Source: Planctomycetota bacterium | GTDB lineage: Bacteria > Planctomycetota > UBA1135 > UBA2386 | DNA length: 64,000 bases | Assembly: GCA_947444055.1 (NCBI GenBank) | Contig: CANEYR010000005.1 | Location: 20,697-84,696, forward strand | Direction of reading: 5' to 3' | Part shown: piece by piece, positions 169-64,000 of the stretch | How the letters are laid out: each line of letters opens with the position of its first letter | How positions within the stretch are numbered: position 1 is the first letter of the stretch | Notes under the pieces: generated by a model | The model's database searches: none | Told to the model about the DNA's origin: nothing | The model's input: only the letters and a program-made list of their open reading frames with translations | Made by a program: the position numbers and the translations under genes

Positions 169-1551
169 ATGAGGCCTATGCGTTCCTTGCTACTCGCCAC
201 CTTGGTTCTCGCTGCGGAAGGGGTTCCTGCCCAGGCTACTTGGTCGTTGCTGTATGCGACCAACCCGCCGCCCCGACGATTCCAGCAAACTTTCGCCGTG
301 CACGAAGCCACGGGGAACTGTGTCTCTCTCTTTGGCCAGGATGCATTGACTGGCGCGGTCATGACGCAGGGCTGGAAGTTGCAGGGAACTGCCTGGTCTG
401 TGCTCGCTGGGCCGTTACCGCCTTGGCGGCGACTCCCGATGATGGCATACGACGCATTGAATCAGCGCCTGGTGCTGTTCGGCGGCGTCAGCGCCGGCGG
501 CGCGTTACTCGATGACACGTGGCTCTGGAACGGCACGGTGTGGACGAGCGCGAGCCCCGCGGTGCGGCCGTCGCCGCGTCGGGATGGCGCCATGGCCTTT
601 GACCGCGGACGAGGCCTCATGGTGCTTTTCGGTGGAGTGGACGGCTCCGAGACGCCGCTCGACGACACCTGGGAGTGGAATGGCAGCACATGGCAGCTGC
701 GTGCTCTTGCCGTTCGCCCTCCTGCCCGCTTTGGTTCTTCGTTGGCTTTTGATCCAGTGAACGGCGGCGTGTTGCTGTTTGGCGGGATCGGCCCGGGGGC
801 CCCGCCAGCGACGATCTACGCCGACACATGGTCGTTCCTCGGCACCAGCTGGCTGCAGCGGCAGCCTGCAACACCGCCGGCGTTTCGTGACCATGCAGGA
901 ATGGCGAGCGATCTGTATCGACAGCGCGTTGTGTTGGTAGGCGGATCGTCAACGGACCCGTTCGCCTGGGAATGGAATGGTACGCAGTGGTCGGTGACGT
1001 ACCAGCCGACGCCGGCCCCGCGCATGTGGTTTGGCATGAGTCACGATCCGGGTGCGCGGCGTCTCGTGGTATACGGCGGGACAGTGTGGCTGGCTGGCTA
1101 TTGGTACAGTCTTGACGACACTTGGATCTATCGGACCCCATTGCCCGCCGATGTCGTGCCGTTCGGCAACGGCTGTGTGGGGACGGCGGGAACGCCAATG
1201 CTCGCTGCGGTTCCGTTCGCTTGGCCGTGGCTTGGCGACACCATGCGCAACGTTGTGCAAGCGATCCCGACTGGCGAACCTGGGGCGATTTTCGTATCGA
1301 GTTTCGGGAGCACACCGCCGGTGTCGCTCGGATCGTTTGGAATGCCAGGTTGCGACCTGTTGGTGCCGATGGATGTGGCCGAGTTCCGCGTCGCGGCTGC
1401 CAGTCGCGCGGAGTGGGCGCTTGCGATCCCCAACTCACTAGCGCTTGCTGGGGTCGCATTCCGTCAGCAAGCATTCGTCTTCGACGCGGCTGCCAACAGC
1501 GGTGGTCTGACCGCGAGCAATGCCGTGACGGTGACGCTCGGCATTCGCTGA
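169..1551 (+). CDS. Secreted Kelch-like beta-propeller protein with shared C-terminal domain
   Basis: Signal peptide (ends ...VPAQ); repeated 'LFGG...DTW.WNG..W' Kelch-like motifs; C-terminal domain 'FGNGC...GMPGC...IPNSLALAGVAFRQQA...SNAVTVTLG'. Confidence 0.85.
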   Translation: MRPMRSLLLATLVLAAEGVPAQATWSLLYATNPPPRRFQQTFAVHEATGNCVSLFGQDALTGAVMTQGWKLQGTAWSVLAGPLPPWRRLPMMAYDALNQRLVLFGGVSAGGALLDDTWLWNGTVWTSASPAVRPSPRRDGAMAFDRGRGLMVLFGGVDGSETPLDDTWEWNGSTWQLRALAVRPPARFGSSLAFDPVNGGVLLFGGIGPGAPPATIYADTWSFLGTSWLQRQPATPPAFRDHAGMASDLYRQRVVLVGGSSTDPFAWEWNGTQWSVTYQPTPAPRMWFGMSHDPGARRLVVYGGTVWLAGYWYSLDDTWIYRTPLPADVVPFGNGCVGTAGTPMLAAVPFAWPWLGDTMRNVVQAIPTGEPGAIFVSSFGSTPPVSLGSFGMPGCDLLVPMDVAEFRVAAASRAEWALAIPNSLALAGVAFRQQAFVFDAAANSGGLTASNAVTVTLGIR

Positions 1552-19816: not shown

Positions 19817-21270
19817 GCCTCGCTGCCGCGACCACGGACTTCTCGCTCTTGCGCCCAGAAGCAGCACTCGCTGCCGGTCTGTGCGCCATTCTCGCTGCCG
19901 ATCTGTTGCCTGGCAGCCGCACGCGCAACATCACGCCTTGGCTTGGCCTGCTCGCCTGCGCACTTGCTTTCACGTTCAGCCTCGCTGCACCGACCGGGAA
20001 CGTCGGCTCGATGCTGGCGATCGACGGTCTCACCAACCTGGCGCGCTGCCTCATCCTGGCCTGCACCGCCGCTGTGTTGCTCGCTGGGGCGGGGGAACGG
20101 CGAGCGCGCACCGACCAGGGCGCTTGGTCGGTGTCGGTGCTCGCGATCGGCCTTGGCGCTCTGCTCACCGCCGCCGCCGCCAACTTCGTGCCGCTGTGGC
20201 TCGGGCTCGAACTGATCGGTCTCGCCAGCTACACGCTCGTGGCCTTCCGGGGCGGCCATCGGCTGGCCGCTGAAGCGGGCATGAAGTTCGTGCTGTTCGG
20301 CGGCGCGGCTAGCGGCCTGATGCTGTTCGGCATCAGCCACATCTTTGGCATTACCGGTCATCTCGACTTCGTCGGCATCGGGGCGGCGGTCGCCACGGGC
20401 ATGCCGGTGCCGGTTGTCGTCGCCCTCGCCTTCGCCAGCATCGGCATCGCCTACAAGCTGACGCTGGTGCCGTTCCACTTCTATTCCCCGGACGTCTACC
20501 AAGGGGCACCGGCGCTCAGTGTCGCGGTGGTGTCGACCGTGCCGAAGATCGCGGCCGTCGCCGCCCTCGTGCGCGGCCTGCAGTTGGCTGTGCCGACGTC
20601 CTTCGTGGCGACCTCTGCCGTGGCGACTGCGCTGGCGACGGCGAGCGCCATCAGCGTGCTCACAGCCGCGTTCCTCGCCGTGGCCCAACGCGATGCCAAA
20701 CGCATCCTCGCCTTCAGCGGCATTGGCCATGGCGCCATCGTCTTGCTCGCGATCGCGTGCTTGCCTGGCGACGACGCGACCGCGGCGGCGGGTTACTACC
20801 TGCTGACCTACGCGCCGGCCAACCTCGGGGCGTGGCTGTGCTTGTCGATCCTCGAACGCGATCACGCTTCGTGCGAACTCACGGCCCTAGCGGGAGCTGG
20901 CAGTCGTCGCCCGGTGGTGACGGCGCTGTTGTGCGTCTTCTTGTTCAGCCTAGCTGGGGTGCCGCCGCTGGCCGGTTTCCTCGGCAAATGGGGTGTGCTG
21001 CAGCAGGCGTTCGCGCATGGCTTGGCGGCGGACGGCACGACCGCCCTGGTGGTCGCCGCGTTGATCACGGTGTTGGCGACCGCCGTCGCCGCGTGGTCGT
21101 ACTTGCTGATTGTGCGCGCCGTCTTGCTGGCGGACGCGCCGCCGACGAACGGCAAGCCGCTGCTCGCGGTGGCGCGGCCGTCCGTCGTCGTGCTCGCCGT
21201 CTGCACAGCCGCGGTGCTGTGGTTGGGACTGTGGCTCGCTGGGCTGCCAGCGATCGCGCGCGCGCTCTGA
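19813..21270 (+). CDS. nuoN: NADH-quinone oxidoreductase subunit N
   Basis: LELIGLASY, EAGMKF, PFHFYSPDVYQGAP, SLAGVPPLAGFLGK. Confidence 0.95.
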   Translation: MSLAAATTDFSLLRPEAALAAGLCAILAADLLPGSRTRNITPWLGLLACALAFTFSLAAPTGNVGSMLAIDGLTNLARCLILACTAAVLLAGAGERRARTDQGAWSVSVLAIGLGALLTAAAANFVPLWLGLELIGLASYTLVAFRGGHRLAAEAGMKFVLFGGAASGLMLFGISHIFGITGHLDFVGIGAAVATGMPVPVVVALAFASIGIAYKLTLVPFHFYSPDVYQGAPALSVAVVSTVPKIAAVAALVRGLQLAVPTSFVATSAVATALATASAISVLTAAFLAVAQRDAKRILAFSGIGHGAIVLLAIACLPGDDATAAAGYYLLTYAPANLGAWLCLSILERDHASCELTALAGAGSRRPVVTALLCVFLFSLAGVPPLAGFLGKWGVLQQAFAHGLAADGTTALVVAALITVLATAVAAWSYLLIVRAVLLADAPPTNGKPLLAVARPSVVVLAVCTAAVLWLGLWLAGLPAIARAL

Positions 21271-37201: not shown

Positions 37202-37462
37202 AACGGTGGCCTAGCCGCATCGAGCCCGTTGGCTGCTTGACGCATCGTGTGAGGATGCGATGAAAGATTGGCGCCAACGGGCCAGCTTCCAATGGCACGG
37301 CATGTTGGCTAGTCCCTTGCCAGAAGACATTTAGCGGTCGGATCCATCCGCTTCCCGAAACTGGAGTCCGAGCAACCGGCGCCCGCGAGCCTTGCGTATG
37401 GGTGTTTACTGCATACGGTGTTCATCCTCGCCCGGCTCTCACCACCCCGCCGGTTCCACCAC

Positions 37463-38896
37463 ATGCTCTCGTTTCGCACCATGCGCCGCTTGATTGCGGC
37501 TGCGACCTTTGTGTCGTTTGCTTCGGCACAGAGTCCACCTCCTGGGTTCACCTACCAGACACTGGTGGATGGCCCGTTGAACAGTGCAACCGCGATGGCC
37601 TTTGCGCCGGACGGGCGCCTGTTCATCACCGAACGCACCACCGGCAACATTCGCGTGTTCGCGAACGGGGCCCTGCAAGCGGCCCCGTGGGCCACGATTG
37701 CGGTGGCGGGTGGCGGCACCTGGGCGGAGCAAGGTTTGCTCGGCATTGCGATCGACCCGGCGTTCCTCACCAATCGGTTCGTCTACGTCTTCTACACCGC
37801 CCCGTCCGGCACTGAGAACCGCATCGCCCGGCTGCAAGAGAACGGCGGCGTCGGCAGCAACCTGACGGTGCTCAGTCCCGCCAACGCGCTGCAGTCGCAG
37901 CTCTACCACAACGCCGGCCCGATGGTGTTTGGCTACGACGGCACCCTGTTTGTCGGGACCGGCGATGCGCTCGGCGGCTCCAACGCGCAAAACATGCAGA
38001 CTTGGCTCGGCAAGATCCTGCGGTTCAACGTGCCCAACTTGACCGTGCCGAGCAACAACCCGTTCCCCGGCAGCGCCATCTATTCACTCGGCCATCGCAA
38101 CCAGTTTGGTCTGACCATCCATCCGGTCACCGGCAAGCTTTACCAGACCGAGAACGGTGGTGCGCTGATGGACGAACTCAACCTGATCCAAGCGGGCGGC
38201 AACTACGGGTGGCCAAACTACGAAGGCCTTGAGAACCCGCCGAACCCGTCCTTCATCGACCCGCTGGCGAGTTACCAGCCGACGACGGCGCCGACCGGCA
38301 CCTGCTTCTATCGCGGCGATCACTACCCGCTGGCCTACAAGCACGCGTGGTTCTTCACCGACTACAACATGAACCGGCTGCGCATGCTGACGCTGAACGC
38401 GGCGGGCACCACGGTGACGAGCCAGATCGTGTTCGACACCTTGCCGGGTTCTGGCTACGGCCTGGTGTCGGGACCTGACGGCAACCTGTGGTACCTGACC
38501 AACGACCAGGGCGGCTTTGGCGCCGACGAACTCGGGCGCTACGTGCATGCCAATGAGCCGATGCCGTCGGCGCAGATCTCGTCGGTGTCGAACAAGTCGC
38601 TTGGCGCCTCGATCACCGTGTGTGTGCACGCGCCAAACGGCACGATCGCGGTGCCCTGGCTGTCGACGTCGCAGTTTGCATCGCCGTTGCCGACGCCGTT
38701 CGGCAACTTGTGGGTGCAGGGCGACGCGATGTTGTCGGCCGTGGTCGTGACCCAAGACCAACGCAACTACCTCGGCTTGACGCTGCCCAATGCGCCGACC
38801 TTCCTCGGCTCGTCGATCTACCTGCAGGCCGTCGTGGTCGATGCCATGAGCACGCTGCGGTTGACGAACCCTTCGCAGTTGGTGATTCGCGGCTGA
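37463..38896 (+). CDS. Secreted PQQ-dependent sugar dehydrogenase-like (GSDH) beta-propeller with shared C-terminal domain
   Basis: MAFAPDGRLF, EQGLLGIA.DP.F, HNAG, GKILR, SLGHRN, DELN...GGNYGWP; start 37463 or 37481. Confidence 0.88.
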   Translation: MLSFRTMRRLIAAATFVSFASAQSPPPGFTYQTLVDGPLNSATAMAFAPDGRLFITERTTGNIRVFANGALQAAPWATIAVAGGGTWAEQGLLGIAIDPAFLTNRFVYVFYTAPSGTENRIARLQENGGVGSNLTVLSPANALQSQLYHNAGPMVFGYDGTLFVGTGDALGGSNAQNMQTWLGKILRFNVPNLTVPSNNPFPGSAIYSLGHRNQFGLTIHPVTGKLYQTENGGALMDELNLIQAGGNYGWPNYEGLENPPNPSFIDPLASYQPTTAPTGTCFYRGDHYPLAYKHAWFFTDYNMNRLRMLTLNAAGTTVTSQIVFDTLPGSGYGLVSGPDGNLWYLTNDQGGFGADELGRYVHANEPMPSAQISSVSNKSLGASITVCVHAPNGTIAVPWLSTSQFASPLPTPFGNLWVQGDAMLSAVVVTQDQRNYLGLTLPNAPTFLGSSIYLQAVVVDAMSTLRLTNPSQLVIRG

Positions 38897-57437: not shown

Positions 57438-60413
57438 CTACAGCGCGAGCGTCATGCGCACCCAGTTCGTCAGTTCGCGTTCGGCGGTGCCGCTCGCGTC
57501 GAGTGTGAAGCCGGCGAAGTACAGCGGCCAGCCGGCTAGGAACGGCAGATACGGCACGAACAAGGTCGGGCTCGCCGTTCCCGTCGCACTCAAGGTGCCG
57601 TTGAACGACACGAAGAACGGGCTCGCCGGGTCGAGGCTCGCCTCCAGCAGGAAGCCAAAGTTCAACGGCAGCAGGCCGCCAAGTGGCAGCGTGACGCCTG
57701 GCGAGAAGCCCTCGCTGCAACACACCATGTAGGGTCGGCCGGCTTCGCTCGGCATGGCCAACAGCATTGGGGTTGCTTGCCCAAGGGTGGCGATGGCGGG
57801 GCCACGCAACGGTTGGCTGTCGAGCAAGAACGACAGGCTCTGCTGCATGAGCTGGGCGCGCGCGGCCGCGCTGGTGATGGTCTCGATCGGCAGGCCGAAG
57901 GTGACGACGCGGGCGCCGGTAGCCGGGTCGTGCCGTTGCACGCCCGCACCAAGGCCATTGCTGTAGCGCAGGCACAGCGTGCTGTTGGCGTTGGTCGGCA
58001 CCAACACATCGGCGTAGTTGACGTCGTAGGTGCCGAAGGTGCCGTTGTCGAAACTGCTGGCAGGCAGGCCTGCACTGATGGTTGCCGCCAAGCCCGCTTG
58101 CAGCGCGTAGACCCCGGCATCGTCGGCGACGTAGGTCGCGCCGAGCACGTTGCGATAGAACGCGCGATCGCCCGCGGAACCCTGCGCGTCGAGGTCCCAG
58201 CCGACTTCGGCGCCACTGACGAGCAGGCTGCCGCCCGCGTTCAAGTAACCCGTCACCAAGGCTTGCTCGATGCCGCCGAACGACTCATCGACGGTGCTCT
58301 CTTCCCCGAGCGACCACACGACGGCTTGGTAGTTGGGCAGCTGCACGCGCAGCAACTGCACGGCTTCGTTGCTGGCGGCGTCGAAGCCGAGCGACACGTT
58401 GGCAAAGCTCCGCAGCCCGTCGCCGAACAGCCGCAGGTAGTCGCGGGTGTTCTCGGGCCCCTTGACGTTGCGATCGAGGCGATCGAAACCCTGCACCAGC
58501 AGCACCTGTGCTTCGCCGAGATGGTCCGTGCCCGCCGTCATCACTTCACTCGCGAACGAGCGGCCAGTCGCATTCCATGCTCGCACGCGGAACGACTTGG
58601 TGGTGTGGTGGGGCAAGGGCCCCGTCGACCACTGGTTGGTCGTGACCGACGCCACCTGCACGAAGCCCTTGCCGTCGTTCGCTTGTTCGATCGTGTAACT
58701 GCTGGCCGCCGCCACCAGATCCCAGGCGACGCGCAAGCCGCGAGCGCCGTCTTGCACGACGCGCAGCGCAGTCGGCGGTTCGGGCGGGAACGGCGCGGTC
58801 GGCGCGAAGTAGCGCAGCACCCCGCGGGCATAGGCGCGCGCGGCCAGGTAGCGAAACTCGGGTTCGTGCAGCGAAGTGTGGTCGAGTGAACCTGGCGTGT
58901 CGTGGAAGGCGAGTTCGACCAGGATGCCAGGCATCGTCGACAGCAGGCGCACTTCACCAAAGTTCGCACCCTGCTGGCCGCGGTCGACCCAGGCTGGGTT
59001 CCAGAACGTTTGCAGGTCGCTGACGAGTTGCGTGTGCACGGCTTGGCTCAACGCCGACGATCCCGCCGTCGCCCCGCCGCTGTAGATGAACGTGTCGGTG
59101 CCGGCCCCGCCGCCAGCGTTGGTATGCAGCGAGACAAAGGCATCCGCCGTGCGCCATTCGGCGAATCGTGGCCGGGCGGTGACGTCGTCGTCGTTGTCCT
59201 GGCCGCCCGGCGTGTTGTCCCACACGCTGCTCGGCGCGCCGGCATATTGCGCCCAGTAGCGCGCACATTCTTTCCATCGCAGTTGGTTGCTGGTGGTGCC
59301 GCCGCGCACCAAGGAACCGAGGCCACCACCGAGGCGAACGGTGTCGGCGATGCACACGCCCGCATTGCTCGACAGGTTGCTCAAGGTGATGCGCGCGCCC
59401 TGGGCTTGGCCAAACCAGAAGTTGCCGATGTGCGCCCAGGTGAGGTTGTCGAGGGTTTGGTCGACGACCGCGGTGCTGATGCCGCCCGTGTGTTCGATGC
59501 GATAGGTCGCGGCGGTGGTGCGGTTGGCACTGGCGCGAAAGCTGAGGAACACCGGGTAGAGGCCGTCCTTCGTCACCGGGATCGTCCAGGTCGCGGTCGC
59601 CGTCTCGTTGGCGGCGTTGCTGCTGACATAGCGATAGCCGAGGCCGTTGTAGCCAGACGATGCCGACGTGGTCCAGCTGCCGGTCTCGGTGTAACCAGGC
59701 GCGCCGTTGTCATTGTCGACGAGGCCATCGACGTGCACTTCACCGTGCTCGCGCGCCATGACGACGTCCGCGCCCAGGTTGTGCAGGAACGGAATCAGGT
59801 ACTGGTTGCAGATCTCGGCGGTGTGGATGTCCTCGGTGAGTCCGTCGATGACGCCGCGCTGCGTCGTCCAACCCAGCGTGCTGTGCCAGTAGTAGCCGTG
59901 GCCTGGAGAGACCGCGATGCGCTTGCCGCTGAGCGCGCCAAAGGGCAGGGTGAGTCCGGCCATCGTCGTCGGCTTGTTCGCCGGTGTTGCGATGGGGCCC
60001 TGTTCGCCGAGGGCCGTGCGCAGGTCCTGTTCGGTGCCGTCTGGGAAGCGAATGGCGATCTGCACGGAGGTGACGCCTGGGGCCCGCAACGTCGTCTTGT
60101 CGATCTGCTCGATCGCGTGTTCGCGCGAGCAACCCAGCGCCACGGTCAGCAGCGTCGGATCGAAGACGAGGCGAACGGTGGCGCCGTTGAGTTGGCACGC
60201 GAGCAGCTGCGTGCCGGGCGGCACATGGCTGGTGTAACCAGCGTTGCTTTCGCTTGGCGTCGGGCCAGCACACAGATGCTGGATGGCAGCGGCCACGTTG
60301 CTGTGCAGCGGCGGCACCGCGGCGAGGTTGTGCTGGCGGCAGAACAGCACTTCTTGCGCGTGGGTCGTCGCGGCAGCGATGGCGATGGTGAGTAGAAGGC
60401 GAGCACTGCGCAT
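57438..60413 (-). CDS. Secreted multidomain N-acetylmuramoyl-L-alanine amidase (Amidase_3) with GerMN-like, carbohydrate-binding-like, FN3 and shared C-terminal domains
   Basis: Zn/catalytic motifs SPGHG, TEDI, VSLHTNA, LVELAFHD; insert 'VDNDN...YTETGSW..S'; FN3 'PPTALRV...VAW..V..ASSY...FRVRAWN'. Confidence 0.85.
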   Translation of the reverse strand: MRSARLLLTIAIAAATTHAQEVLFCRQHNLAAVPPLHSNVAAAIQHLCAGPTPSESNAGYTSHVPPGTQLLACQLNGATVRLVFDPTLLTVALGCSREHAIEQIDKTTLRAPGVTSVQIAIRFPDGTEQDLRTALGEQGPIATPANKPTTMAGLTLPFGALSGKRIAVSPGHGYYWHSTLGWTTQRGVIDGLTEDIHTAEICNQYLIPFLHNLGADVVMAREHGEVHVDGLVDNDNGAPGYTETGSWTTSASSGYNGLGYRYVSSNAANETATATWTIPVTKDGLYPVFLSFRASANRTTAATYRIEHTGGISTAVVDQTLDNLTWAHIGNFWFGQAQGARITLSNLSSNAGVCIADTVRLGGGLGSLVRGGTTSNQLRWKECARYWAQYAGAPSSVWDNTPGGQDNDDDVTARPRFAEWRTADAFVSLHTNAGGGAGTDTFIYSGGATAGSSALSQAVHTQLVSDLQTFWNPAWVDRGQQGANFGEVRLLSTMPGILVELAFHDTPGSLDHTSLHEPEFRYLAARAYARGVLRYFAPTAPFPPEPPTALRVVQDGARGLRVAWDLVAAASSYTIEQANDGKGFVQVASVTTNQWSTGPLPHHTTKSFRVRAWNATGRSFASEVMTAGTDHLGEAQVLLVQGFDRLDRNVKGPENTRDYLRLFGDGLRSFANVSLGFDAASNEAVQLLRVQLPNYQAVVWSLGEESTVDESFGGIEQALVTGYLNAGGSLLVSGAEVGWDLDAQGSAGDRAFYRNVLGATYVADDAGVYALQAGLAATISAGLPASSFDNGTFGTYDVNYADVLVPTNANSTLCLRYSNGLGAGVQRHDPATGARVVTFGLPIETITSAAARAQLMQQSLSFLLDSQPLRGPAIATLGQATPMLLAMPSEAGRPYMVCCSEGFSPGVTLPLGGLLPLNFGFLLEASLDPASPFFVSFNGTLSATGTASPTLFVPYLPFLAGWPLYFAGFTLDASGTAERELTNWVRMTLAL

Positions 60414-62291: not shown

Positions 62292-64000
62292 ATGCGCTCA
62301 CCTCTCTCTGCGGCTGTCGCCGTGCTCTTCCTGCTCCCTGTGCTGTCGGCGCAAGGCGCGCTCAGCGCTCCTTGCTTCGTCAGCAGCTTCGGCACCAACC
62401 TTGCCCTCACCGACGACTCTGTGAGCCAGGGCGTGCCCCTCGGCTTCGCGTTCCCTCGCCCCGGTGGCGGCAGCGTCACGGCGATCAGCATCAGCAGCAA
62501 CGGCTTCGTTTGGCTTGGCATCAACGGCGACTCCGGGTGTTGCATCGGTGACCCGAACAAGTTGCTGACGCAGATGTCGCGCGTGGCGCCGATGTGGATG
62601 GACCTCAATCCAAGCGTCGGCGGCGCCGTGTGGTTCAACTCGCTGCCGGCCAGCGGCTCGACGCCAGCGAGCGCGATCGTGACCTGGGACAGCGTGCCCG
62701 AGTTTCCAAGCCAAGGCGCGTTGACGTTCCAACTGCAGCTCTTCGCCGACGGCTCGGTGTTGATGTTCTTCGACGCCAACGCGACGAACAGCAACCACAC
62801 GGTGTTGACCGGCATCAGTGAAGGCACCAACGCCATTGCCAACTTCGTCGACATCTCGAGCACAGCTGGCGCCCCGCACGATAGTGGCACCAACCCCACG
62901 GTCTTCGAGCACCAGTCGTTCGGCTTCGATCTGGCCGCCAGCGCCTACACCTTCGTGCCGAATGGCCAAGGCGGTTACCTCGTGACGCAGAAGGCGGGCT
63001 GCACGTTCGCCGGTTCGGTGCCGTTTGGCCGCGGCTGCCCAAAACCAGTGACGGTCTACGAACTGTTCACCGCGACCAACCAGCTTGACCTCTCGAACAC
63101 CGCGATCGAGTTCACGCCTACGGGGGCTGGCGCCTACGTAGCCATCCAACAGCCGGGTTTCTTCAGCGGCTACACCAATGTGCAGGTGTTCGCCGACGAC
63201 GATTCGCACGGACCGTTCAACCTGCCATTCACGTTCCCCTACCCCGGCGGCAGCACGAACGCGATCGACATCAGCAGCAACGGGTTCGTCTGGCTGCAAG
63301 CCGGCAACCCCAACTCGCGCTGCTGCAACGGCGATTCGTTCCAGTTCGTGAGCGACCCCGCCAGCATCGCGGTGTTATGGCAGGATCTCTATCCGCCGGG
63401 TGTGGCGCTTGGTGATGGCGTGTTCTTCGATGTGGTGGGGACGACGGAAGCACACATCACGTGGGTCAACGTGCCCGAGTTCTTCAACGTCGGTAGCAAT
63501 ACGTGCCAGATCACTCTGCGCAGCAACGGCAGCTTTCGGCTGTCCTGGGGCAATGTCGCGAACATCAGCCACGACGCGATCGTTGGCATCAGTGACGGCT
63601 TTGGCTCCTCGGTCCCTGGCTCGATCGACTTCAGCGCCGGTCCGTTCGTCACCGGCAACGGCGGCATCCCGCTGCGGTTGGGGGCGCAGGCTGGTTCGCG
63701 ACCTGGACTCGGCCAGACCTTCACGATGGAGGTTGACCAGATCACGGCCGGTTCGTTGGCTGGCTTCATGGTGTTCGGGGCCACGTCGTTCCCGAACGGC
63801 ATCGACCTGAGCGGCATCGGCATGGTTGGCTGCGAGCTCTACGTCTCGCTGGATTCCCTGCTGTCCTTCCCGCTCGTCGGCACGCCGACCCCATTTGCGA
63901 TCGCGGTGCCCGCGACCCCTGGCCTGATCGGCACCGTGTTCCACGCGCAGGCGGCAACCCTGACGCCAGGGGCGACGGCGCTGAACCTGCTGTCCTCGAA
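62292..64000 (+). CDS. Secreted protein with two nidogen (NIDO)-like repeats and shared C-terminal domain (runs off window end)
   Basis: Manual translation from ATG 62292: MRSPLSAAVAVLFLLPVLSAQ; duplicated 'F.FP.PGG...AI.ISSNGFVWL...CC.GD...W.DL.P' unit. Absent from the ORF track because no stop lies in the window. Confidence 0.8.
   Translation, partial: MRSPLSAAVAVLFLLPVLSAQGALSAPCFVSSFGTNLALTDDSVSQGVPLGFAFPRPGGGSVTAISISSNGFVWLGINGDSGCCIGDPNKLLTQMSRVAPMWMDLNPSVGGAVWFNSLPASGSTPASAIVTWDSVPEFPSQGALTFQLQLFADGSVLMFFDANATNSNHTVLTGISEGTNAIANFVDISSTAGAPHDSGTNPTVFEHQSFGFDLAASAYTFVPNGQGGYLVTQKAGCTFAGSVPFGRGCPKPVTVYELFTATNQLDLSNTAIEFTPTGAGAYVAIQQPGFFSGYTNVQVFADDDSHGPFNLPFTFPYPGGSTNAIDISSNGFVWLQAGNPNSRCCNGDSFQFVSDPASIAVLWQDLYPPGVALGDGVFFDVVGTTEAHITWVNVPEFFNVGSNTCQITLRSNGSFRLSWGNVANISHDAIVGISDGFGSSVPGSIDFSAGPFVTGNGGIPLRLGAQAGSRPGLGQTFTMEVDQITAGSLAGFMVFGATSFPNGIDLSGIGMVGCELYVSLDSLLSFPLVGTPTPFAIAVPATPGLIGTVFHAQAATLTPGATALNLLSS

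Follow-up and report, generated by a model that had tools for sequence, protein, structure and literature searches.

The subject of this study is a protein domain encoded repeatedly in a 64,000-nucleotide stretch of DNA (hereafter the window; contig CANEYR010000005.1 of assembly GCA_947444055.1, forward-strand positions 20,697 to 84,696) from a bacterium of the phylum Planctomycetota. The domain spans about 125 amino acids at the C-terminus of otherwise unrelated exported proteins, and we use CTD as the label for the family, which was defined from the source genome (5.35 Mb, 89.7% complete; 50,514 open reading frames (ORFs), 596 of them in the window). We tentatively regard CTD as a lineage-specific tag for localisation to the cell envelope, one that would dock or anchor its carriers rather than be threaded and cleaved as a signal. 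We lean towards a localisation tag because the pattern is terminal, single-copy, linked to signal peptides, independent of cargo and restricted to certain lineages. A sequence-only reading of the window had suggested a shared C-terminal sorting or anchoring module on four of its proteins, a Kelch protein, a GSDH-like protein, an amidase and a NIDO-like protein; those same features speak for a module of this kind, and no partner for it was found.

A hidden Markov model (HMM) built from the four window tails matched 78 ORFs of the genome and converged on 185, a procedure that is circular for those four tails. Each of the 185 ORFs carries exactly one copy; none has two, and none has the domain internally. 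The domain ends at most 12 residues from the stop codon in 169 of them, and among public representatives it lies at the C-terminus in 148 of the best 150 of 18,125 matches. Twelve further ORFs extend 34-41 residues past the domain, often ending in R-F-E-[HY]-Q, and the last match is a fragment. The expected confinement to the C-terminus is broken by the remaining three ORFs, in which the domain follows the signal peptide directly and lies N-terminally (a canonical copy in one ORF, divergent copies in two Kelch proteins), an arrangement also seen in two of the best 150 public representatives. One protein consists of a signal peptide and a CTD only. The extended set includes C188:3114-4244, C131:74-1267, C137:3446-4714, C30:23047-24450 and eight others; several of these proteins have about 340-360 mature residues, and several share a Pfam-less N-terminal domain that is found in 6 of 151 genomes sampled across the phylum.

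Signal peptides of the Sec type accompany the domain, as had been anticipated. With a crude heuristic that accepts a start within the first 100 residues, and with long ORFs as controls, a signal-peptide-like start was called in 122 of 168 CTD ORFs and in 851 of 2,674 control ORFs. Under a stricter rule, which looks at the first polar residue beyond the hydrophobic core, that residue is glutamine in 90 of 118 CTD proteins, compared with 483 of 1,572 other signal-peptide-like ORFs. Signal peptides across this genome in general tend towards A-Q ends. In having glutamine immediately behind the signal peptide, most tagged proteins resemble those under the Q-rule, which is described as specific to Bacteroidetes (PMC5837995, PMC10653852); the word Planctomycetes is absent from the first of these papers, published in 2018.

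This resemblance bears on a different interpretation, namely that the folded tail is an export signal, read in the periplasm by a dedicated outer-membrane translocon and then removed, as an independent analogue of the C-terminal domain of the type IX secretion system (T9SS). The strict terminal position, the single copy per protein and the very high copy number are as in T9SS CTDs (a Bacteroidota control genome, G178, holds 109 matches to TIGR04183), and the A-Q end recalls the Q-rule as given in PMC5837995. In addition, the most conserved glycine lies 0-2 residues from the end in 127 of 138 copies, the final residue is often L or F, and a disulfide would imply folding ahead of any outer-membrane step. 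The N-terminal copies do not fit such a signal, and together with the genomic evidence given below they make us judge it rather unlikely.

The cargo to which CTD is attached is diverse. Among 68 full-length public representatives, 31 carry Kelch repeats, 9 PKD domains, 4 DUF5122/Rax2 propellers, 1 GSDH and 1 RCC1, and 22 are Pfam-less; a C-type lectin with Kelch repeats is among this cargo. A sample of 20 hand-chosen CTD proteins from the source genome, ten of which are atypical, contains Kelch (1), PKD (2), trypsin-like (2, one below the cut-off), sulfatase (1) and DUF5122 (1) proteins, with 13 Pfam-less. After masking of CTD, single-linkage clustering of 160 CTD proteins places 70 in one cargo group, to which the NIDO-like window protein belongs, and leaves 52 singletons. 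The NIDO-like cargo group also has 26 'non-CTD' members, and the terminal tails of many of these look, to the eye, like divergent CTDs, so the true number of CTDs is probably greater than 185.

The fold of the domain was predicted with AlphaFold2 from 44 copies, giving an eight-strand beta-sandwich of high model confidence (predicted local distance difference test, pLDDT, 97.5; predicted template-modelling score, pTM, 0.89). Foldseek found nothing at E<=0.001 in the PDB for this model, and the CTD profile found nothing at E<=10 among PDB sequences. With VIA-align the top PDB match, to immunoglobulin (Ig) domains of LILRB3 type, reaches Z 8.5, which is within the range that the program calls common, and stands among Ig, FN3 and carbohydrate-binding module (CBM) domains; the fold is that of a generic Ig-like sandwich. 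T9SS CTD chains are not among the 50 VIA-align rows shown, which does not count against a likeness in fold.

The most conserved HMM positions are Y/F1, G2, G4, C5, G23, L54, C62, P88, G95, Q101, S117 and G125. Two motifs singled out beforehand, an 'LG-x-[TSA]' strand and a 'GM.GC.L' pattern in two of the four window tails, correspond to positions G23 and C62 and are genuinely conserved. The last glycine is the most conserved position of all, and the final residue is most often L or F. Cysteines 5 and 62 covary: of 121 copies, 101 have both, 4 have a single one and 16 have none. This covariation points to a Cys5-Cys62 disulfide, and thereby to folding outside the cytoplasm. Among 28 Kelch orthologues, which were chosen by tail similarity, CTD is 68% identical and the cargo 46%. 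Conservation of this kind places CTD under constraint, subject to that choice of orthologues.

The composition of CTD is unusual: D, E, K and R together make up 5.5% and lysine 0.3% of its residues, against 21.4% and 2.6% in the genome, and 122 of 168 copies have no lysine at all. The 300 residues upstream are also charge-poor (11.4% charged, 0.7% lysine). Aspartate amounts to 2.7%. This depletion in CTD proteins may protect them against the genome's own trypsin-like peptidases and the products of its ten M28 peptidase matches. Taken further, the same thought leads to a passive module, an Ig-like cap or spacer without any addressing function, which would make exported proteins more stable, for instance towards the peptidases of the cell itself. 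The generic sandwich fold, the failure to find a partner and a composition that would resist trypsin-like peptidases, themselves among the cargo, are in keeping with it. Spacer Ig domains, however, are usually tandem or internal, which CTD never is in 185 ORFs, and the same tail is found on unrelated folds including enzymes. The existence of a protein of signal peptide and tail only also speaks against it, as do the known anchors that related cargo bears at this position in other genomes. We think a purely stabilising module unlikely.

Glycan or ligand binding, by which the tail would keep enzymes and binding proteins attached to a polymer such as a substrate or a polysaccharide of the cell itself, has its basis in the same fold comparison. 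The CTD model matches CBM56 at Z 7.6 and the beta-glucan-binding domain of GNBP3 at Z 7.3, scores that fall within the background of generic Ig-like matches in that list. The sulfatase and the C-type lectin with Kelch repeats would suit such a role, whereas most of the cargo consists of propellers of unknown activity and not of glycoside hydrolases. Moreover, no Pfam CBM match was obtained on the four window tails at E<=0.1, and the aromatic content (7.5%) is ordinary; a CBM-like function appears improbable. The very high copy number and the uncharged surface would also be compatible with a self-association tag that knits tagged proteins into a surface coat; nothing in the analysis speaks directly for this, and we give it very little credence.

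Membership of the four window tails was assessed without circularity, using an HMM trained on 40 genomic copies that lie outside the window, with E-values scaled to all 50,514 ORFs. The Kelch and NIDO-like tails are clear canonical members by their sequences. In the Kelch protein, a signal peptide with a ..VPAQ end (169..234, plus strand), the A-Q end being typical of this genome's CTD proteins, precedes a Kelch beta-propeller (235..1143; Pfam PF24681, PF13418 and PF13415) and a canonical CTD (1144..1548, stop codon 1549-1551) that the non-window HMM recognises at E 3.8e-30 (106 bits). The NIDO-like protein has a signal peptide ending in ..LSAQ (62292..62354, plus strand), repeat cargo with a weak PF06119 match (62355..63638) and a canonical CTD (63639..64000; E 2.1e-20, 74.5 bits) that is cut by the window end; its ORF continues for 25 bases beyond, and the CTD aligns at residues 484-606 of 607.

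The GSDH-like protein is a more distant case. Within ORF 37418-38896 (plus strand), a start picked by eye gives a probable signal peptide ending in ..FASA and followed by Q (37481..37528). The cargo is a beta-propeller of the soluble pyrroloquinoline quinone (PQQ)-type sugar dehydrogenases (37529..38521; PF07995, E 4.3e-61), and the tail (38522..38893) lacks both cysteines. Against the non-window HMM this tail scored E 0.29 and 12.5 bits, where the top of 1,000 shuffled tails reached 13.1 bits; on iteration it rose to 1.2e-5 and then 2e-6 prior to its inclusion, and the iteration from the non-window seed yields 183 domains. On this basis the GSDH tail is a divergent member of the family without the cysteine pair.

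The amidase (991 residues, gene 57438-60413, minus strand) comprises a body with signal peptide, Germane, Golvesin_C, Amidase_3 and further domains (57843..60413), the signal peptide itself ending in ..THAQ (60354-60413), and a C-terminal tail (57441..57842). This tail gave no match to the non-window HMM at E<=10, nor in seven rounds of iteration. Comparing a profile of the 40 non-window copies with one of 22 amidase orthologues gave a probability of 7% (E 0.005, 33 columns); an earlier value of 93% was discarded, the alignment behind it having included that very tail. Membership in the CTD family could not be demonstrated for the amidase tail, which is at best a distant cousin. The proposal of one domain on four proteins accordingly survives for three, the Kelch and NIDO-like tails being recovered directly by the non-window HMM and the GSDH tail on iteration, and falls for the amidase. 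The four signal peptides ending near AQ, on the other hand, were all borne out by translation (..PAQ, ..SAQ, ..HAQ and ..SAQ).

An HMM of the amidase tail and 21 orthologues delineates a family of its own, made up of 8-9 C-terminal tails of the source genome, which we term type B. Members beyond the window are C3:86177-88126, C11:59540-62488, C126:7391-9136, C203:854-2818, C235:62-2302, C81:2381-4732 and C32:6857-7903. The type B tail ends about 15-20 residues short of the stop codon and resembles CTD at the motif level only. Among the best 14 of 15 rows of the type B HMM at E<=1, six ORFs outside the set appear, and all six are canonical CTD proteins matched at their C-terminal halves, against a base rate of 183 in 50,514 ORFs. 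The model of the amidase tail, which is of moderate confidence (pLDDT 69), is Ig-like and matches generic Ig-like sandwiches; eight PDB chains are common to its matches and the CTD top 50 in VIA-align. Together these observations make it probable that the amidase tail is a distant cousin of CTD.

The domain also proved to be uncatalogued, as had been supposed: neither Pfam nor NCBIfam nor the sequences of the PDB contain a match to it. Pfam identified Kelch, GSDH, Amidase_3 with Golvesin_C, and (weakly) NIDO on the four window proteins, and their last 125-135 residues returned no Pfam or NCBIfam match at E<=0.1. Homologous-protein searches gave only close orthologues or proteins without names, a protein atlas yielded nothing but 'hypothetical protein' clusters lacking a Pfam family, and a full-text literature search, whose coverage excludes subscription journals, found no paper on CTD. 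Transcript data are limited to the Kelch gene, for which one freshwater run contains two metatranscriptome contigs (171 and 151 bases) identical to the window; the 151-base contig maps inside the tail (1210-1360), and DNA carry-over is possible. RNA runs X2 and X3 had zero coverage of this gene, which does not imply that it is silent.

A profile search of 1.84 billion cluster representatives produced 18,125 matches at E<=0.001 and 10,244 at E<=1e-10. Of 31 close relatives, 30 carry CTD. It is also present in 56 of the 101 genomes that make up a class sample, all 56 listed under the same order, and in 26 of 151 genomes of a phylum-wide sample. By family, the positive genomes are 12 of 12 in f1, 4 of 4 in f7, 3 of 3 in f2, 1 of 1 in both f6 and f8, 19 of 21 in f9 and 15 of 58 in f10. 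Genomes of f1, f7 and f8 carry tens to hundreds of copies, those of f9 only 1-3, and most of f10 none. Outside the Planctomycetota, CTD was found in 1 of 101 genomes in each of two phyla, reached via loci labelled Archangium and Acidobacteriota. Five further genomes had none. Records of full Kelch-CTD proteins are labelled Planctomycetota, Planctomycetia, Phycisphaerales, 'Brocadiaceae' or 'uncultured bacterium'. CTD matches are almost confined to some families of the Planctomycetota. For an export signal this pattern is awkward, as genomes with 1-3 tagged proteins would keep a whole apparatus for them.

Localisation by docking would account for these features in the following way. Tagged proteins would be exported by Sec, and signal peptidase I would cut between A and Q. 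The tail would then fold in the periplasm, stapled by its disulfide, and its last two conserved strands (Y/F-x-Q ... S-N ... and the G-x-hydrophobic end) may dock onto a shared envelope component. Docking would keep the cargo, including propellers, PKD proteins, sulfatase, trypsin-like peptidases and PQQ dehydrogenase, at the outer membrane or the cell surface; it could be coupled to passage across the outer membrane or be independent of it. Docking is preferred over a cleaved export signal because N-terminal copies are tolerated, a tail-only protein exists, f9 genomes carry only 1-3 tagged proteins and dockerins take that slot in other members of the phylum.

The sequence-only reading had also expected a dedicated export or surface-display system, and the searches did not uncover one. 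A screen for outer-membrane proteins by terminal aromatic residue gave 70 candidates, and the 20 scanned in Pfam comprise TonB-dependent receptors, porins, LptD, DUF481 and DUF5916 proteins and unknowns; none of the candidates recurs beside CTD genes. One TonB-dependent receptor (C33:2910-5852, minus strand) has an N-terminal CarboxypepD_reg domain, an architecture that we take to be SusC-like. At C7:44857-51611 (minus strand) a small outer-membrane-like lipoprotein, Pfam-less and with one paralogue, lies directly upstream of three successive CTD genes of that strand.

Three candidate families were set aside after profiling over the 151 genomes. The N-terminal domain of the tail-extension subfamily is present in 6 genomes, with a distribution unlike that of CTD. 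The protein adjoining a CTD gene on contig C119 occurs in 6 genomes, all CTD-positive, and is absent from 20 other CTD-positive ones. A lipoprotein of 1,172 residues on contig C77 was found in 19 genomes, 16 of them CTD-positive; it also occurs in G119 and G032, which are both CTD-free, while 10 CTD-positive genomes lack it. This lipoprotein-like protein (C77:19027-22542, minus strand) is Pfam-less with a glycine-rich centre, has a paralogue at C17:39737-43135 and may simply share a clade with CTD. In the CTD-poor genomes G097 and G026 the CTD proteins, by eye, are a protein with an HExxH motif and FG-GAP-like repeats and two with D-x-D-G-D-type repeats; none is machinery-like, and all look like ordinary cargo.

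Several results weigh against the docking reading. Among 642 non-CTD genes within three genes of 160 CTD genes, no family is clearly enriched; the best (4 of 5 members, p 0.004 before correction) is explained by two paralogous operons. The outer-membrane-like gene that heads a three-CTD operon was seen in this setting once only, and none of the three profiled families matches the CTD distribution over the 151 genomes, apart from the large lipoprotein family, which is found in CTD-free genomes as well. Altogether, no receptor or machine emerged from the neighbourhood, outer-membrane and profiling searches. CTD copies within one genome average only about 36% identity, which is awkward for a single protein receptor, and the fold, as noted, is generic. 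Cargo such as GSDH and the amidase could act in the periplasm and not necessarily on the surface. In every one of 21 amidase orthologues, conservation is lower in the tail than in the body. That dockerins and CTD were found in different genomes is a point for docking, but a qualified one: Dockerin_1 is expanded (18-39 or more matches) in 11 genomes from about seven families among the 151, CTD-rich genomes have 0-1 dockerin matches, and the zero overlap between dockerin-rich (>=10 matches, n=11) and CTD-positive genomes (n=26) has a chance probability of about 1 in 8, with related genomes not independent. This non-overlap is only consistent with docking.

A more ambitious proposal, which we consider doubtful, is that some families of the Planctomycetota independently evolved a scheme like that of the Bacteroidota, with a signal-peptide cut that exposes Q and a C-terminal Ig-like tag, read by an undiscovered outer-membrane export-and-attachment apparatus unrelated to T9SS. 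If true, it would be a new system of protein secretion or sorting, with up to about 4% of the proteome as its clients. Little is understood of how proteins reach their places in or outside the unusual envelope of Planctomycetota, and CTD offers a concrete handle on the question. It would predict which proteins make up the surface or envelope of these uncultured bacteria from freshwater and soil and could be used as bait in partner pull-downs. Its entry in domain libraries would better annotate thousands of 'hypothetical proteins'.

Comparison with the T9SS reveals likeness in organisation and no sign of homology. Both domains are Ig-like sandwiches that occur singly at the very C-terminus of proteins with a signal peptide, on unrelated cargo and on tens to hundreds of proteins per genome, with conservation focused on the last strands and a Q after the signal-peptide cleavage site. 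However, the T9SS family model has 72 positions against about 125 residues and eight strands in the planctomycete CTD, which in addition has a covarying cysteine pair and rare N-terminal placement. Charged residues make up 20.9% of 20 T9SS CTDs and 5.5% of CTD. TIGR04183, the type A T9SS CTD whose Pfam counterpart is Por_Secre_tail (PF18962), has no match in the source genome or in a one-contig relative (G169, 94% complete), against the 109 in the control G178; for SprA (PF14349), the only other T9SS part searched, the counts are 0, 0 and 3. An hhalign comparison of 44 CTDs with 20 T9SS CTDs of the control gave a probability of 0.7% (E 0.081, 14 columns). The analogy to T9SS drawn at the outset does not extend to homology, and these absences, with no recurrent neighbour and no candidate machine, also count against an export signal of that type. 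Glutaminyl cyclase (PF05096) was not found in the source genome, and 8 scanned of the 10 M28 matches gave weak aminopeptidase-type NCBIfam matches only, with no cyclase-named family.

PEP-CTERM (TIGR02595) is likewise a C-terminal tag on signal-peptide proteins of environmental Gram-negatives. It is a motif of about 24 residues with a transmembrane helix and a basic tail, whereas CTD has no hydrophobic helix and its tails end in a beta-strand and G-x-x. NCBIfam gave no PEP-CTERM match on the four window tails, and genome-wide there are only 2 such matches against 185 CTDs.

The type I dockerin (PF00404), like CTD, is a terminal module on otherwise unrelated exported proteins, and it occupies the same slot on Kelch homologues. 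In metagenome-assembled genomes of Phycisphaerales these homologues end in dockerin-like repeats, with Dockerin_1 above the cut-off in one of four and near it in another one of four; one Kelch homologue ends instead in a PEP-CTERM-like tail that Pfam does not recognise. PF00404 itself has no match on the four window proteins or on two further CTD tails. A dockerin is a short, aspartate-rich, calcium-binding module of duplicated loop-helix units and not a beta-sandwich, and we know of no cohesin-like receptor in Planctomycetota for either dockerin or CTD. The combination of A-Q cleavage sites with a C-terminal Ig-like tag would, if the parallel with Bacteroidota holds, be a notable convergence, and in its logic CTD may be compared with a dockerin or with the anchoring half of a T9SS CTD.

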